Below, one piece after another: positions 52,173-58,114 of a DNA stretch of 64,000 nucleotides. Within the stretch, counting starts at the first letter, position 1; every line of letters starts with the position of its first letter. The position numbers and the translations under genes are program-made. The notes beneath the pieces are model-generated. The model was not told where the DNA came from and ran no database searches. It saw only the letters and a list, made by a program, of their open reading frames with translations. The stretch covers positions 18,989 through 82,988 of the forward strand of contig DATLFH010000082.1 of assembly GCA_035524965.1 (NCBI GenBank). The letters run 5' to 3'. The stretch is from Gemmatimonadota bacterium (lineage in GTDB: Bacteria > Gemmatimonadota > Gemmatimonadetes > JACCXV01 > JAHWKZ01).

Positions 52173-53597
52173 GTGGCAGACGGCTACATTCTCGTCGTGG
52201 ACGACGATCCCTCGATTTGCGACACCTTGACCACGATGTTGCAATTCAAGGGGTACCGCACTTCCGTCGCCCGGACGGGCCGTGAGGCGATCGAGCTAGC
52301 GCGCGAGCACCCCCCCGACCTGGTACTTCTCGACATCATGATGCCCGAGGTCGACGGCCTGGGGGTCTGCCGTGTCTTCCGTCAGGACCCGCGCCTCGAG
52401 GACGTCCGGATCCTCATGCTGACGGCCCGCAACGGACGTCAGGACGTGGTCCAGGCGCTCGAGGCCGGCGCCAGCGACTACGTTACCAAGCCGTTCTTCA
52501 TCGACGAGCTGGTCGCCCGGATCCGGACGAACCTCGAAGTCAAGCGGTACCATGACGACCTGGCCGCCATGCTTCGCATCTCGCAGGCGGTATCCTCCAC
52601 ACTGGACAGCGAGAGGGTGCTGTACACGATCGTCAGCGAGCTGGGGTCGGTCGTGCACTCGGATCGCGCCACCCTGATCAAGGTCGCAGACCAGAGTCTC
52701 GGCTACGTGGTCGCGACCCGCGACGATCCCGAGATGCGCAACAAGCCGGTGGATCTGTACGACTATCCCGAGATCCAGAAGGCGACCGCCGAGCGCCGGG
52801 TCGTGGTCATCGACGATACGCACACGGACCCGCTCCTGGCCGGCGTGGCGAGCCGGATCCCGATGCGGAAATCGGTCATGATCATCCCGCTGGTGATCCA
52901 GAAAGAGGGGATCGGCGAGTATGTGCTCCTATCCTCCCGATCGCACCGACCCTACACGGAGCCAGAGGTCAAGTTCGCGCGGGTCGTGGCGAGCGCGGCC
53001 GCCAACGGGCTCACCAACGCCGCGCTTTACGAACAGGCCGCCATCGACAATCAGCGGCTGACCACGCTCGCCAATACGGACGATCTCACCAAGCTCTTCA
53101 ACCACCGGTACTTCTACCAGCGCCTCGAAGAGGAGTTCAAGCGCGCCGAGCGCTACGACTCCGATCTCGGGCTCATCCTGCTGGACCTCGATCATTTCAA
53201 GCAGGTCAACGACACCCACGGCCACCAGCGGGGGGACTCCGTGCTGAAGGAGCTGGCCACGGTCCTGACCCGCACGATCCGCGAGACGGACCTGCTTGCC
53301 CGCTACGGCGGCGAGGAGTTTGCCGTTCTGCTGCCCGAAACGAACCTGCCGGGCGCCTTCCAGCAGGCCGAACGCATACGGCGCGACATCAAGGCCCACT
53401 ACTTCGAGGCCCTGCAAGGGAAGCCGCTGACGATTTCGTGCGGGGTCGCCTGCCTGCCGTTCAGCGTCAAGGGTTTCAAGGCGCCGCACCACCAGCAGGA
53501 CGCCTTGATCGCCTGGGCCGATCAAGCCCTGTACGACGCCAAGCGCGCGGGTCGCGACCGCTCGATCACCTCCGAACCGCGCCCCGACGGCGAGTGA
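52173..53597 (+). CDS. response regulator with REC, GAF and GGDEF (diguanylate cyclase) domains
   Basis: REC (ILVVDDDPS...DLVLLDIMMP), GAF-like middle region and GGEEF active site (RYGGEEFAVLL). Confidence 0.8.
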   Translation: MADGYILVVDDDPSICDTLTTMLQFKGYRTSVARTGREAIELAREHPPDLVLLDIMMPEVDGLGVCRVFRQDPRLEDVRILMLTARNGRQDVVQALEAGASDYVTKPFFIDELVARIRTNLEVKRYHDDLAAMLRISQAVSSTLDSERVLYTIVSELGSVVHSDRATLIKVADQSLGYVVATRDDPEMRNKPVDLYDYPEIQKATAERRVVVIDDTHTDPLLAGVASRIPMRKSVMIIPLVIQKEGIGEYVLLSSRSHRPYTEPEVKFARVVASAAANGLTNAALYEQAAIDNQRLTTLANTDDLTKLFNHRYFYQRLEEEFKRAERYDSDLGLILLDLDHFKQVNDTHGHQRGDSVLKELATVLTRTIRETDLLARYGGEEFAVLLPETNLPGAFQQAERIRRDIKAHYFEALQGKPLTISCGVACLPFSVKGFKAPHHQQDALIAWADQALYDAKRAGRDRSITSEPRPDGE

Positions 53598-54595
53598 CCG
53601 CCGGGCTGGCGATCGCGCTGGCGGTCGGGCTCGTGGTGGGTGGATTCGCGTTCCTGGGCTGGGGTCTGGTGGGATGGCTGGGCGCATGGCGACTGAATCG
53701 GCCCCCTCCCTCCCGCCCCGAGGCGAACTTCACGTTCACCCCTTGGGAGCTCGGTGTGGAGTTCGAGCCGGTGGAGCTCGAGACCGCCGACGGGGTCGCC
53801 CTCGAGGGGTGGTTCCTGCCCCGACCGTCGAGCCGGCGGGTGGTCGTGGCGATGCACGGCTACCGCGGCAACAAGGCGCAGATCCTGGGGATCTCCAGCT
53901 ATCTCTGGCGGGCCGGCTTCAACGTGCTCCTGTTCGACTTCCGAGGGCGCGGCGGCAGCCAGCGTGCGCCGTTCTCGATGGGGTGCTGGGAGGTGGAGGA
54001 TCTCGTGGCCGCGCTGGAGGAGGCGAGCGCGCGGGTCGAGGACGCCACGATCGGGCTCCTGGGGTACTCGGTGGGAGGGGCGGTGGCGATCCTCGGTGGC
54101 AGTGACCCGCGGGTCGCTGCGATCGTCGTCGACAGCTCGTTCCCCAGCCAGCGCGCGGTTCTCGAGAGCGTGGCCGCAAGGGACGCGCGCCGCGTGTTCG
54201 GGACCCGGCTCGACGGCCGACTCTTCCTGCCGGCCGTCGAATGGTGGCACCGGCGCATGGGGAAACCGGCCTTCGACGACATCGCACCCGAGGCGGCGCT
54301 GCCGGTGCTCGAGGGGACGCCGATTCTCTTCATCCACGGCACGCGGGACGGCATCGTCCCCCTGGTGCTCGCGGAACGGCTGGTGGCGGCCGCCCGCGAG
54401 CCGCACGAGACCTGGTTCGTGAACGGGGCCAGCCATTGCGGCGCATACTTCCTGGACCGCGAGACCTATTGCACCCGGGTGGCCGCGTTCTTCAGCCGAC
54501 ATCTGGGGCGCGAGAAGCCGAACCCGGCGCGTGGCGAGGTCCGCCGGACGGCGGTGAGCGTCCCGCAAGCCGGTGAGGAGCCGAAGCGCGCATGA
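53594..54595 (+). CDS. alpha/beta-fold hydrolase with N-terminal membrane anchor
   Basis: GYSVGG nucleophile elbow. HG oxyanion region (VVAMHGYRGN). The GTG start overlaps the upstream TGA. Confidence 0.7.
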   Translation: MTAGLAIALAVGLVVGGFAFLGWGLVGWLGAWRLNRPPPSRPEANFTFTPWELGVEFEPVELETADGVALEGWFLPRPSSRRVVVAMHGYRGNKAQILGISSYLWRAGFNVLLFDFRGRGGSQRAPFSMGCWEVEDLVAALEEASARVEDATIGLLGYSVGGAVAILGGSDPRVAAIVVDSSFPSQRAVLESVAARDARRVFGTRLDGRLFLPAVEWWHRRMGKPAFDDIAPEAALPVLEGTPILFIHGTRDGIVPLVLAERLVAAAREPHETWFVNGASHCGAYFLDRETYCTRVAAFFSRHLGREKPNPARGEVRRTAVSVPQAGEEPKRA

Positions 54596-54849
54596 CGCCG
54601 CCGGGGACGTTCAACGTCCGCCTCTTCGGCCCTGCGCGCGAGGCCGCAGGGGCTCCGGTCCTGGCGGTAGAGCTGGACGCGCCGGCGAGCGCCAGCGAGG
54701 TGATCGCCGCGCTCGGTCGCGCCTGCCCCGCGCTCATGCCGCTCCTCCCGAGCTCGCGCGTCGCGGTCAACCGCGCCTACGTCGAGGCGGAGACAGCCGT
54801 CGAGCCCGGCGACGAGGTCGCGATCCTGCCGCCGGTCGGCGGAGGCTGA
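54592..54849 (+). CDS. moaD: molybdopterin synthase sulfur-carrier subunit MoaD
   Basis: Small ubiquitin-like protein ending in GG (ILPPVGGG). ATGA overlap with the hydrolase. Confidence 0.75.
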   Translation: MTPPGTFNVRLFGPAREAAGAPVLAVELDAPASASEVIAALGRACPALMPLLPSSRVAVNRAYVEAETAVEPGDEVAILPPVGGG

Positions 54850-54916: not shown

Positions 54917-55369
54917 GTGCGCACCCACTTCGAAATCACCGAAAGCCCACTCTCGATCGAGGCCCTGGTGGCGCGCCTCGCGGACCCTTCCGCAGGGGCC
55001 GTGGCCACGTTCTCCGGTACCGCCCGCAACACCTTTGCGGGCAAGGAGGTGCGCTATCTCGAGTACGAGGCGTACAGGCCCATGGCGGAACAGGTGCTGG
55101 CCGACATCGGTACGGAAATTGCGATCCGGTGGCCGCACGTGATCGCGATCGCGATCGCGCACCGAGTCGGCCGGCTGGAGATCGGCGAGTCGAGCGTGAT
55201 CGTGGCGGTCTCGGCGCCACACCGTCGCGAGGCCTTACAAGCCTGCGCGTACGGGATCGACCGGCTCAAGGCGATCCTTCCCGTGTGGAAGAAGGAGGTT
55301 TTCGCCGACGGAGAGGTCTGGCGCGAGAACGTGTTCGGGAACTCCACGCAGGGAGGTGAGCCGCCCTGA
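54917..55369 (+). CDS. moaE: molybdopterin synthase catalytic subunit MoaE
   Basis: MoaE fold-like sequence (GAVATFSGTARN...LEYEAY...). GTG start. Confidence 0.8.
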   Translation: MRTHFEITESPLSIEALVARLADPSAGAVATFSGTARNTFAGKEVRYLEYEAYRPMAEQVLADIGTEIAIRWPHVIAIAIAHRVGRLEIGESSVIVAVSAPHRREALQACAYGIDRLKAILPVWKKEVFADGEVWRENVFGNSTQGGEPP

Positions 55370-55554
55370 TCACCGCGAACTGCCGCACCCGGCTGACGGC
55401 CGAGGACCTCGAGTTCCTCGTCGATACCCTCGCCCGGAGCCGCTCCGATCGCGACCCTCTGCACGAGCTGGCCGCGGACTCCGATTCGCTCGATCGCCTG
55501 CTCGACAGCCCGGACATTTTTTACCGGCTTCTCGAGGCCCCGCGCCTCCTCCAC

Positions 55555-56088
55555 GTGTCGCCCTATTTCTTCTACTACGTCGTCGTGCGCCGCGTTTTCG
55601 TGGACCACGGAATCGATCGCCGGGTGGCGGCCGATTATGTCGGTGCGCTCCTTTCCTATCATGTGCAGCAGCCCGAACCCGCGTCGAGCCCCGCCGGGCC
55701 CACGGTCTACCTCGTCGACCTCGTGCAGGCGATGGATTCGGCGCGCTCGCCGGAGGAGGAGTTCGCGCTCCAGGCCGGGGTGGGCGACCTCGCGCTCTAT
55801 CTCGCAGGTCTCTTCCCCGACTGGATCTATCACCGTCATACCTGCGGCCGGCGGTTGGTCGGGCTCGGTTACTACGAGGACATGGGCCGGCGCTTCTACG
55901 CCGCGGCCGCGCGAACGGAGCCCGCCCGCCGCCACGATCTCGGCGACGTGCTCGAGTTCATGGCCGCCGAGTTCCCGGCGATCCGCCAGGCGCTGAACGA
56001 TCTCGTCGACGAGCACCTTCATCTCGCCCCCCGTCCGGCGACCGTGGACGCCCTCTGCCGGCAGGCGCTCTACCGCGTCCGGAACTGA
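55555..56088 (+). CDS. hypothetical protein, first of two tandem paralogs (FFYYV motif); likely begins earlier, near 55366
   Basis: The reading frame is open from just after the moaE stop and encodes protein-like sequence (LTAEDLEFLVDTLARSRSDRDPLHELAADSD...). The first canonical start is GTG at 55555. The TGA overlaps the ATG of the next paralog. Confidence 0.45.
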   Translation: MSPYFFYYVVVRRVFVDHGIDRRVAADYVGALLSYHVQQPEPASSPAGPTVYLVDLVQAMDSARSPEEEFALQAGVGDLALYLAGLFPDWIYHRHTCGRRLVGLGYYEDMGRRFYAAAARTEPARRHDLGDVLEFMAAEFPAIRQALNDLVDEHLHLAPRPATVDALCRQALYRVRN

Positions 56089-56762
56089 TGGCCCTCCTCG
56101 GCGAGCTCCAGCGGGTCTTCGAGAACACGTACGGCCGGCCGGCGGGCGTCGACCTGGAGGCCTGCGTCGTGGGGGCGCGTCGTTTTGCCGAGCTGGCAGC
56201 CCAAAGCCCGGGCGAGCACGCGGAGATGTCGGATTGGGCGCGCTTCTTCTACTACGTCGAGCATGCGAACCTGCGGTTGGCGCTCTTCTATCGGGACGAG
56301 ATGATCGCCGCGCTGGAGGCGATCGATCCGCGGCGGTCGCTCGGCGAGTCGAACGTGCTGCCCTTTCTCGTCTTCACCGAGGAGCTGAGTCACGCCGTGC
56401 ACACGACCTACGCCTTCGGGGAGGGGGGCGCCCGGCGGGTCCACGAGCCGAGCTTCGCCGCCGAGCTCGAGCTCCTGGCGCGGATCGATGCCTATCTGCT
56501 CCTCAGGCATTTCGTGCGCGGCCTCGTGCGGCGCTACACGGCGGCCGATCGCGCGTGGGTTCGCCACCACGCGGTGACGCGTTGGGACGTTCCGTACGAG
56601 GACGAGCTCCTGGCGGAGCGGTATCAGGGTGCGGCGCGCATGGCGGCGGCGTACGTCGATCACCTGGAGACCTTGACGCCGGTGGCGCAGATCCGCGAGC
56701 TCCGCCGCTTCCGCCGGCTCTCGCTGGCCGCCAAGCGCGCCCGGATCGCACGGCTCAACTGA
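56088..56762 (+). CDS. hypothetical protein, second tandem paralog (FFYYVEH motif)
   Basis: ATG at 56088 (CTGATGG). Shares the FFYYV core and an aromatic/Arg-rich helical C-terminus with the upstream gene. The 468-aa track ORF 55356..56762 has a nonsensical Arg/Pro-rich N-terminus. Confidence 0.5.
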   Translation: MALLGELQRVFENTYGRPAGVDLEACVVGARRFAELAAQSPGEHAEMSDWARFFYYVEHANLRLALFYRDEMIAALEAIDPRRSLGESNVLPFLVFTEELSHAVHTTYAFGEGGARRVHEPSFAAELELLARIDAYLLLRHFVRGLVRRYTAADRAWVRHHAVTRWDVPYEDELLAERYQGAARMAAAYVDHLETLTPVAQIRELRRFRRLSLAAKRARIARLN

Positions 56763-58114
56763 GCGCTCGCGGGAGCGGCGCGCTCCTGACCCCGGTCGTC
56801 GCCCGCGCGCTCGGTTGGGCGGCGGCCACCTTCTACGACATCGAGCGGATCGGTCCCGCGGTTCCCGAAGGCCCCGTCCTCATCGTCGCCAACCACCCGA
56901 ACGTGTTCCTGGATGCCTTCGTCGTCTTTCGGACCGCTGGCCGGCCGGCGCGGCCGTTGGCGAAGGCGTCCCACTTCGAGAACCCCGTCTACGGGCTGTT
57001 CCTGCGGGCTCTGGGCGGCCTCCCCGTCCACCGACCGCAGGACGATCCCGCTCGCATGCCCGATAACGAGGAGACGTTCCGCGCCGCGGTGGCTGCGCTT
57101 CGCGGGGGGGACGTCGTCCAGATCTACCCCGAGGGGCGCAGTCACTCCGAGCCGGCGCTGGCGCCGCTCCGCACGGGCGCCGCGCGGATCGCGCTCCGCG
57201 CCGAGGCGGAGGCGGGGTGGAACCTCCGCCTCGCGATCGTGCCGATCGGCCTGACTTACGAGCGCAAGACCCTCTTCCGCGGGCGCGCGGCGGCGTTCAT
57301 CGGCGAGCCGTTCGGAGCAGGGGGGTATCGGCAGGCATGGGAGCGGGAGCCGGTCGCGGCCATCCGCGGGCTGACGCAGGAGATCGCGGATCGGCTCGAG
57401 GCGGTGACCCTGAACCTCACCGAAGCCGAGGACTTCGACCTGATCGAGATCGCCGAACGGTTGTACGCACGCGAGAAGGGATGGGCCGGCTGGCGCGAAC
57501 GGGAGGGCCTGGGCGGGCGCCTGCCGAGGCTGCAGGCGTTCGCGCGCGGCCTGGCGTGGCTCCGGGCGCACGATCCCGGGCGGTACCGGCGGCTGGCGCT
57601 CCGGGTCCGGCGCTACGGCCGACTGCTCGAGCGGGTCGGGGCGGGCGAAGCCGACGTGCCGCCCGAGTACCGTCGCGGCGTCGTGATCGGCTATGCGCTC
57701 CGCGAGGCACTCGCCCTCGGGATCGGCTTTCCGCCGGCCGCGGCCGGGCTGCTAGCCTGGTACGTACCTTACCTGGTCCCGCGGGTGGTCGCGCGGCTCG
57801 CCCGGCCGGAGTCGCAGGCGATCGCGACCTGGAAGCTGGCCGCGGCAATGGTCGCCTTTCCGGCCGCCTGGGTGGGATGGATCCTCGTGATCGGCTGGGC
57901 GGCCGGCGGGAAGGCGGCCCTCATCGCGGCTCTCCTGCTGCCGCCCCTCGGCCTCTTCACCCTCTGGTGGACGAAGCGCTGGGAGCGGGTACGCGAGGAC
58001 ACGGTCCTGTTCTTCCGGCTTCTATTCCGGCCCGGGCGCCGCGATCGCCTGGCCGCCTACCGCACGGTGCTCGCCGTGGAGTTCGACGCGCTCCAGCGGG
58101 AGATCACGGGCTGA
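56759..58114 (+). CDS. PlsC-family 1-acyl-sn-glycerol-3-phosphate acyltransferase with C-terminal TM domain
   Basis: HX4D motif (ANHPNVFLD), PEGRSHSE motif and C-terminal hydrophobic helices. No canonical start downstream of the previous stop; CTG at 56759 is proposed, with low confidence on the start. Confidence 0.6.
   Translation: MSARGSGALLTPVVARALGWAAATFYDIERIGPAVPEGPVLIVANHPNVFLDAFVVFRTAGRPARPLAKASHFENPVYGLFLRALGGLPVHRPQDDPARMPDNEETFRAAVAALRGGDVVQIYPEGRSHSEPALAPLRTGAARIALRAEAEAGWNLRLAIVPIGLTYERKTLFRGRAAAFIGEPFGAGGYRQAWEREPVAAIRGLTQEIADRLEAVTLNLTEAEDFDLIEIAERLYAREKGWAGWREREGLGGRLPRLQAFARGLAWLRAHDPGRYRRLALRVRRYGRLLERVGAGEADVPPEYRRGVVIGYALREALALGIGFPPAAAGLLAWYVPYLVPRVVARLARPESQAIATWKLAAAMVAFPAAWVGWILVIGWAAGGKAALIAALLLPPLGLFTLWWTKRWERVREDTVLFFRLLFRPGRRDRLAAYRTVLAVEFDALQREITG

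Follow-up and report, generated by a model that had tools for sequence, protein, structure and literature searches.

A conserved pair of apparently unrelated genes downstream of moaE in Gemmatimonadota, with a probable CTG start codon and a putative zincin-like product

A stretch of 64,000 nucleotides (nt), hereafter the window, was analysed from a Gemmatimonadota metagenome-assembled genome (assembly GCA_035524965.1, contig DATLFH010000082.1, positions 18,989 to 82,988; about 70% G+C), and the present account concerns two adjacent genes within it, here called F1 and F2 (public protein tags VM737_10275 and VM737_10280). The order on the plus strand is a response-regulator/GGDEF gene, an alpha/beta hydrolase gene, moaD, moaE, F1, F2 and a PF01553 acyltransferase gene. 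moaD (54592..54849) encodes a ThiS-family sulfur carrier (PF02597, E=7.8e-16) with the C-terminus PPVGGG, and moaE (54917..55369, stop TGA at 55367-55369) the large subunit of molybdopterin synthase (PF02391, E=1.1e-40). F1 (55366..56088), when read from a CTG at 55366-55368, encodes an all-alpha protein of 240 amino acids (aa), and F2 (56088..56762, from ATG 56088 to TGA 56760-56762) a 224-aa product predicted to adopt a zincin-like (thermolysin-type) fold; neither has a family assignment. The genes meet at AACTGATGG, where the F1 stop (TGA, 56086-56088) and the F2 start (ATG, 56088-56090) share one nucleotide (TGATG, 56086..56090). An initial annotation, made from the letters of the window, had described two tandem, tightly packed plus-strand reading frames of unassigned function between moaE and the acyltransferase gene, overlapping at 56088, and the PF02391 and PF01553 matches on either side together with a reading of the junction confirm this arrangement. 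Its dismissal of a 468-aa open reading frame (ORF) at 55356-56762 as a mis-merged artefact was also correct, since this is the F2 frame continued upstream through off-frame, Arg/Pro-rich sequence.

Short overlaps recur along the strand. The alpha/beta hydrolase gene starts in a GTGA overlap (53594-53597), its stop is overlapped by the moaD ATG (ATGA, 54592-54595), the moaE stop and the F1 CTG overlap by 4 nt (CTGA, 55366-55369), and beyond the TGATG at 56086-56090 a further CTGA lies at 56759-56762. Because of this chain of stop/start overlaps, a single long translationally coupled operon extending from the GGDEF response regulator to the acyltransferase is suggested.

The headline claim of the initial annotation was that F1 and F2 are paralogues sharing a conserved FFYYV core and similar C-terminal halves. 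The pentapeptide is exact in both proteins (residues 68-72 of F1, 55567..55581, and residues 53-57 of F2, 56244..56258, both on the plus strand), and adjacency and similar length would equally agree with a tandem duplication. Pairwise alignment, which the initial annotation had itself named as decisive, nevertheless refutes the claim. BLASTP of F1 against F2 returned E=22, and profile-profile comparison of the two families with hhalign gave a probability of 2.9% over 12 columns only, around FFYYV; the value was 0.4% with broader alignments and 0.3% for the gammaproteobacterial gene pair described below, and no likeness of the C-terminal halves was detectable. The predicted folds differ as well. 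F1 was modelled by AlphaFold2 as an all-alpha protein of 16 helices (predicted local distance difference test, pLDDT, 83.5; predicted template modelling score, pTM, 0.83) and F2 as a beta-hairpin followed by long helices (pLDDT 93.1, pTM 0.91), so that FFYYV falls in helix 66-80 of the former and in beta-strand 51-58 of the latter. At least one common 5-mer was found in 14% of composition-preserving shuffles, a chance level at which the shared pentapeptide is no evidence of kinship, and FFYYV is not ancestral either, as its place is taken by SPYMLFSILLRQ or SPFLAFAVAVER in distant F1 relatives and by unrelated strands in distant relatives of F2. The alternative that F1 and F2 are the halves of one frameshifted gene fares no better, for more than 100 homologous loci always hold two separate genes, each with its own start. 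Both origins, duplication and frameshift, are accordingly held to be extremely improbable, and F1 and F2 can with high confidence be called unrelated in sequence and predicted fold and a conserved pair. Three apparent F1-F2 fusions (P0317, P0332 and P0287) were looked at and rejected as natural fusion proteins, as they resemble frameshifted read-through calls from noisy assemblies.

The pairing itself extends well beyond the window. All 31 loci from Gemmatimonadota show the order moaD-moaE-F1-F2; in two loci of other lineages (L032 and L033) F1-F2 occurs without moaDE. A distant F2 subgroup comprises more than 5,700 clusters at 90% identity; Ectothiorhodospiraceae belong to it, as do a protein with the annotation Methylolobus aquaticus and a 5.2-Mb contig. 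In 58 of 80 metagenome loci of this subgroup, the F1 profile is matched by the ORF that immediately precedes F2 in the same orientation, and 20 of the 22 loci that remain have less than 300 nt of upstream sequence; the family of preceding ORFs and F1 are homologous (hhalign 98.4%, E=4.5e-15, 135 columns). F1 and F2 are for the most part spaced by -4 to +10 nt, in Gemmatimonadota and in the distant group alike. The gammaproteobacterial pair has variable flanks and stands alone amid unrelated housekeeping genes, and such flanks as are conserved are merely housekeeping genes at the level of the lineage. The F1-F2 association is ancient, without being universal for F1, and that with moaDE is lineage-specific, because the pair occurs elsewhere without these genes. 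The pair does not look like an anti-phage defence or toxin-antitoxin module: PADLOC and PHROG gave no matches, and its surroundings are conserved housekeeping genes. In 41 of 80 loci with the gammaproteobacterial-type F2 (L089-L163), a convergent gene of some 130-155 aa lies on the opposite strand as the immediate downstream neighbour, at about 0.6 kb; it has no match in Pfam, NCBIfam, PADLOC or PHROG, and a NUDIX hydrolase gene often comes after it.

The constant company of moaD and moaE in Gemmatimonadota raises the question of whether the pair serves molybdenum-cofactor biosynthesis there, for instance by processing or regulating MoaD/MoaE. Besides the synteny, the moaE stop and F1 start overlap or nearly do so in most loci, and moaC and a rhodanese gene are found nearby in relatives. 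However, this role has to be reconciled with the loci without moaDE (L032, L033 and those of Gammaproteobacteria, with their unrelated housekeeping flanks), with a gap of 70-220 nt between moaE and F1 in deep-branching Gemmatimonadota, and with a MoaD that in the window already ends in Gly-Gly and needs no processing. We therefore consider a dedicated role in cofactor synthesis unlikely.

The start of F1 deserves particular attention. Its frame is open from 55360, right after an in-frame TGA at 55357-55359, and the first ATG, GTG or TTG within it is GTG 55555; the observation of the initial annotation that no canonical start occurs for about 190 nt past the moaE stop thus stands. Inside the 3' end of moaE lies an 8-nt Shine-Dalgarno site for F1, GGAGGTGA (55352..55359, plus strand), which contains the very TGA that bounds the frame upstream, three codons before CTG 55366, and the CTG stands 6 nt past this site. 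As the frame is closed three codons upstream, the initiation codon must be CTG 55366, unless the conserved ATC next to it, a less likely candidate, serves instead.

The homology-aligned start codon was read in the window and in 31 Gemmatimonadota species-representative loci, 32 species altogether, and proved to be CTG in 13, TTG in 8, ATG in 7 and GTG in 4. GGAGGTGA is kept 6 nt before the start in L001-L027, with one-base variants in two loci, and the full motif is missing from the deep-branching L028-L031. In the F1 tree, one deep clade is mostly CTG, at 13 of its 20 tips, and the GTG, ATG and TTG tips are scattered among these; CTG has persisted across the clade and has several times been exchanged for another start codon. 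CTG and the moaE stop overlap as CTGA at most of the loci that have this codon; at three (L001, L004 and L015) the moaE stop lies elsewhere and the CTG is still present. In species with the -4 overlap, the F1 start begins with the wobble base of the last MoaE codon (Pro, CCC or CCG), and changes from CTG to GTG are therefore silent in moaE. Sister species toggle between CTG and GTG in just this way, synonymously in moaE (L008, L009 and L012 versus L006, L010, L011 and L013).

Protein conservation agrees with a start at this codon. Full-length F1 homologues are about 238 aa long and begin MIxxNCR, aligned to L-ITANCR of the window, and conservation sets in at Ile2, the residue right after the CTG. 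Across the 13 CTG species the first 60 codons of F1 are gapless, with 1289, 787 and 2231 differences at codon positions 1, 2 and 3, respectively, and 1227 synonymous codon differences. Such a bias towards third positions identifies these codons as translated sequence under purifying selection. The corresponding 60 residues are modelled as six helices, with block pLDDT values of 73-91. An upstream stop, canonical codons in orthologues, a suitable Shine-Dalgarno distance and purifying selection, on which the recognition of a near-cognate start depends, are all found at F1.

Public gene calls place the start elsewhere. Both the NCBI and the Logan calls begin at GTG 55555, and the public F1 entry (P0001, VM737_10275) accordingly has 177 aa and leaves out 63 conserved residues. 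If that product were the real one, the missing start would reflect an assembly error or a decaying gene. Against this, 13 independent species-level genomes share the CTG, the 60 codons upstream of the GTG change without gaps and mostly at third positions, they encode six confidently modelled helices, and a strong Shine-Dalgarno site is correctly spaced from the CTG. A start at GTG 55555 is for these reasons very unlikely, and the 177-aa call is regarded as truncated because initiation must lie at the CTG or the adjacent ATC. Of the 120 public F1 calls listed, some 45 have an internal start codon, in keeping with gene-calling programs that accept ATG, GTG and TTG alone. A fusion of MoaE and F1 by frameshifting, which the initial annotation had offered beside a non-canonical start, was set aside; it need not be invoked, given orthologues that have ATG, GTG or TTG in this position and moaE stops that do not overlap it, and only the non-canonical start has held.

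Some points weigh against CTG 55366 as the start. In the loci with the -4 overlap the T and G of the codon are also fixed by the moaE stop, the neighbouring ATC/ATT is conserved and offers an alternative, if less likely, initiation codon, and CUG is a weak initiator in E. coli, at about 1-2% of AUG (10.1101/063800). The strong Shine-Dalgarno site and termination-reinitiation at the overlapping stop are likely to compensate for the weakness of CUG. A scan for missing starts among some 38 other ORFs of the window was made with a stricter gene caller based on G+C at third codon positions, the first version of which picked antisense shadow ORFs and was not used for annotation. Apart from the acyltransferase gene, F1 is the sole ORF wholly inside the window with a long coding-like leader, so the use of CTG is not a genome-wide habit. 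On balance, it is very likely that F1 starts at CTG 55366.

At E<=0.001, F1 has 147 homologues, and all ten of the named ones among the 120 listed are from Gemmatimonadota. F1 is without a match in Pfam, NCBIfam, PADLOC or PHROG, and scans of the distant F1-like proteins with the same four collections were equally empty. A large branch of the superfamily (L034-L080), from Verrucomicrobiota, Dehalococcoidia (Chloroflexota), Bacillota and Actinomycetota, consists of proteins of 260-310 aa with the motifs GDxALFLTGVFPD and RRALNFxADRYL and without a Pfam match. These genes are solo, as many of them lack an F2-like ORF within 6 kb even when searched with a broad hidden Markov model, and they have no common neighbour; their flanks include genes for SMC, Fpg, a cyclase, a SpoIIE phosphatase and a nitroreductase. 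This counts against a strict two-gene module, and F1 is therefore not always in need of F2.

The predicted structure of F2 points to a possible metal site. The motif EELSHAVH (56379..56402, plus strand; E98, E99, H102 and H105) lies in helix 90-118 and is the presumed counterpart of HExxH, with Glu for the first His. Helix 123-146 bears E126 and E128, of which E128 (56469..56471, plus strand), 26 residues after H102, is the candidate third metal ligand. E98, E99, H102, H105 and E128 are invariant in 88 close F2 homologues, and E98, H102 and E128 are nearly invariant in 61 divergent relatives taken from 494 cluster representatives at 50% identity. From the model and this pattern, a zincin-like fold with an ExxxH...E site is likely for F2, not established.

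Several results speak against a zincin assignment. The canonical first His of HExxH is absent, and the Glu at the position of the catalytic base, E99, is Gly in a large gammaproteobacterial subgroup (LEGVSHF), where H105 also varies. Comparison of the F2 profile with thermolysin residues 139-316 by hhalign gave a single alignment, VFTEELSHAVH with VVAHELTHAVT, in the expected register (E98=H142, E99=E143, H102=H146) and at a probability of 0.8%, which is not significant. Foldseek of F2 against the PDB, a check that had been proposed with the initial annotation, found no match (best E=0.59, TM <=0.27), and F2 has none among PDB sequence profiles or in Pfam; PDB sequence-profile searches produced chance-level matches only. 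Scans of F2, its 61 relatives and the gammaproteobacterial pair gave no Pfam or NCBIfam match, hence no profile of a curated peptidase family, and PADLOC and PHROG were empty for all of these too. The remark of the initial annotation that no known domain was recognised in the two proteins is in keeping with these scans. The motif reads EExxH in the window and the 88 close homologues and E-G-x-x-H in the distant subgroup, and F2 was not filed in any peptidase family because the defining HExxH is lacking. One public protein of 217 aa on an 867-nt contig (P0233) is 72% identical to the first 127 residues of F2 and yet has Pfam matches to MarR/Crp-type helix-turn-helix domains; the contig is probably chimeric or misassembled.

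The change of E99 to Gly and the variable H105 disfavour a conventional peptidase. They also lend substance to the main rival explanation, that F2 is a pseudo-zincin, a non-catalytic scaffold or binding protein, and the pair a structural or regulatory complex. The replacement of the first zinc-binding His by Glu and of the catalytic Glu by Gly in the gammaproteobacterial subgroup, along with the loss of H105, would be natural for such a protein. Near-invariance of E98, H102 and E128 throughout the family is, on the other hand, what a retained metal site would lead one to expect, and E99 does not vary at all among the close homologues. A pseudo-zincin is a serious possibility, if a less probable one.

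The reading we prefer is that of an ancient two-gene module. Ribosomes that end moaE would reinitiate at CTG 55366 behind the strong Shine-Dalgarno site and translate F1, and F2 would be made in step with it through the 1-nt overlap. The two products would form a 1:1 cytoplasmic complex, in which F2 may bind a divalent metal by Glu98, His102 and Glu128 in place of the His-His-Glu ligands, and Glu99 would occupy the catalytic-base position. F2 could then work as a hydrolase or a metal-dependent binding module, and F1 could be its regulatory or substrate-recognition partner. The enrichment of short overlaps among subunits of complexes (PMC10666635) supports the notion of an F1-F2 module. Taken as a whole, a module of zincin-like F2 and all-helical F1, forming a complex, with the CTG start and reinitiation, is reasonably probable; complex formation and metal binding by F2, considered for themselves, have somewhat less than even chances. 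The most specific version is put forward tentatively: an undescribed, widespread two-subunit metalloprotein in which a zincin-fold subunit would bind its metal by a Glu-His-Glu triad (ExxxH...E) and function solely together with a dedicated all-helical partner of novel fold, whose expression in one Gemmatimonadota clade would be set by the long-kept CTG, read by termination-reinitiation at the moaE stop.

The gene downstream of F2 (56759..58114, plus strand, start uncertain) encodes a PlsC-like acyltransferase (PF01553, E=2.4e-15, 56.9 bits) with the HX4D motif HPNVFLD at 56894..56914. As the initial annotation had remarked, it lacks a canonical start, no ATG, GTG or TTG being present from 56582 to the HX4D motif; two canonical codons further upstream would need an overlap of 180-200 nt with F2 and encode off-frame-looking sequence. 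The candidates are CTG 56759, which forms CTGA with the F2 stop, and CTG 56786, with GGGAG (56770-56774) 11 nt upstream. The 36-nt junction between F2 and the acyltransferase gene is identical in the closest relative (L164), whose acyltransferase call begins at a GTG inside HPNVFLD and drops the catalytic His. The gene follows F2 in the window and in this relative only; in 31 other loci from Gemmatimonadota it is absent from the position after F2. Its grouping with the pair in the initial annotation is therefore not supported, the gene being a lineage-specific neighbour and no part of the conserved pair.

Two protein families with thousands of members and without an entry in Pfam, NCBIfam, PADLOC or PHROG thus prove to form a fixed gene pair that spans Gemmatimonadota, Gammaproteobacteria and other phyla, and the pairing provides a concrete handle for their characterisation. 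If the Glu-for-His site does bind metal, zincin active sites would span a wider range of sequences than is now known. The CTG of F1 offers a clean comparative case of a near-cognate start held over long evolutionary time. Neither the gene pair nor the CTG start overturns current understanding. A practical outcome is that gene callers mis-start both F1, in about 45 of the 120 listed calls, and the L164 acyltransferase, at the cost of its catalytic His.

In comparison with known systems, the downstream gene resembles PlsC/LPLAT acyltransferases (PF01553) in its family match and HX4D motif and differs in falling below the TIGR00530 cutoff, in about 250 extra C-terminal residues and in the missing canonical start. 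The gluzincins of clan MA, such as M1 aminopeptidases, thermolysin (M4), ACE (M2) and oligopeptidase F (M3), are the systems to which F2 was compared. In contrast to these, F2 lacks HExxH, its first His being Glu and its catalytic Glu being Gly in many relatives, it has no Pfam, NCBIfam, PDB-profile or Foldseek match, and at 224 aa it is a small protein with one domain, whose helical neighbour gene is obligate. Short overlaps (-4 ATGA and -1 TGATG) are enriched among the subunits of heteromeric complexes (Huber et al. 2023, PMC10666635), and the locus is similar to such coupled pairs in its overlaps of 4 nt (moaE/F1) and 1 nt (F1/F2) and in the short spacings kept in relatives. It departs from them in that the -4 overlap is CTGA, with a near-cognate CTG in place of ATG, GTG or TTG, and the coupling here is a predicted one. 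Near-cognate initiation at CUG, AUU, AUC and AUA is documented in bacteria (Hecht et al., 10.1101/063800), and in E. coli CUG, at about 1-2% of AUG, is rarely annotated. The F1 codon is of the same kind and stands at a homology-defined start behind a strong Shine-Dalgarno site. Here, by contrast, CTG is the commonest F1 start codon, in 13 of 32 species, and is apparently maintained rather than transient.

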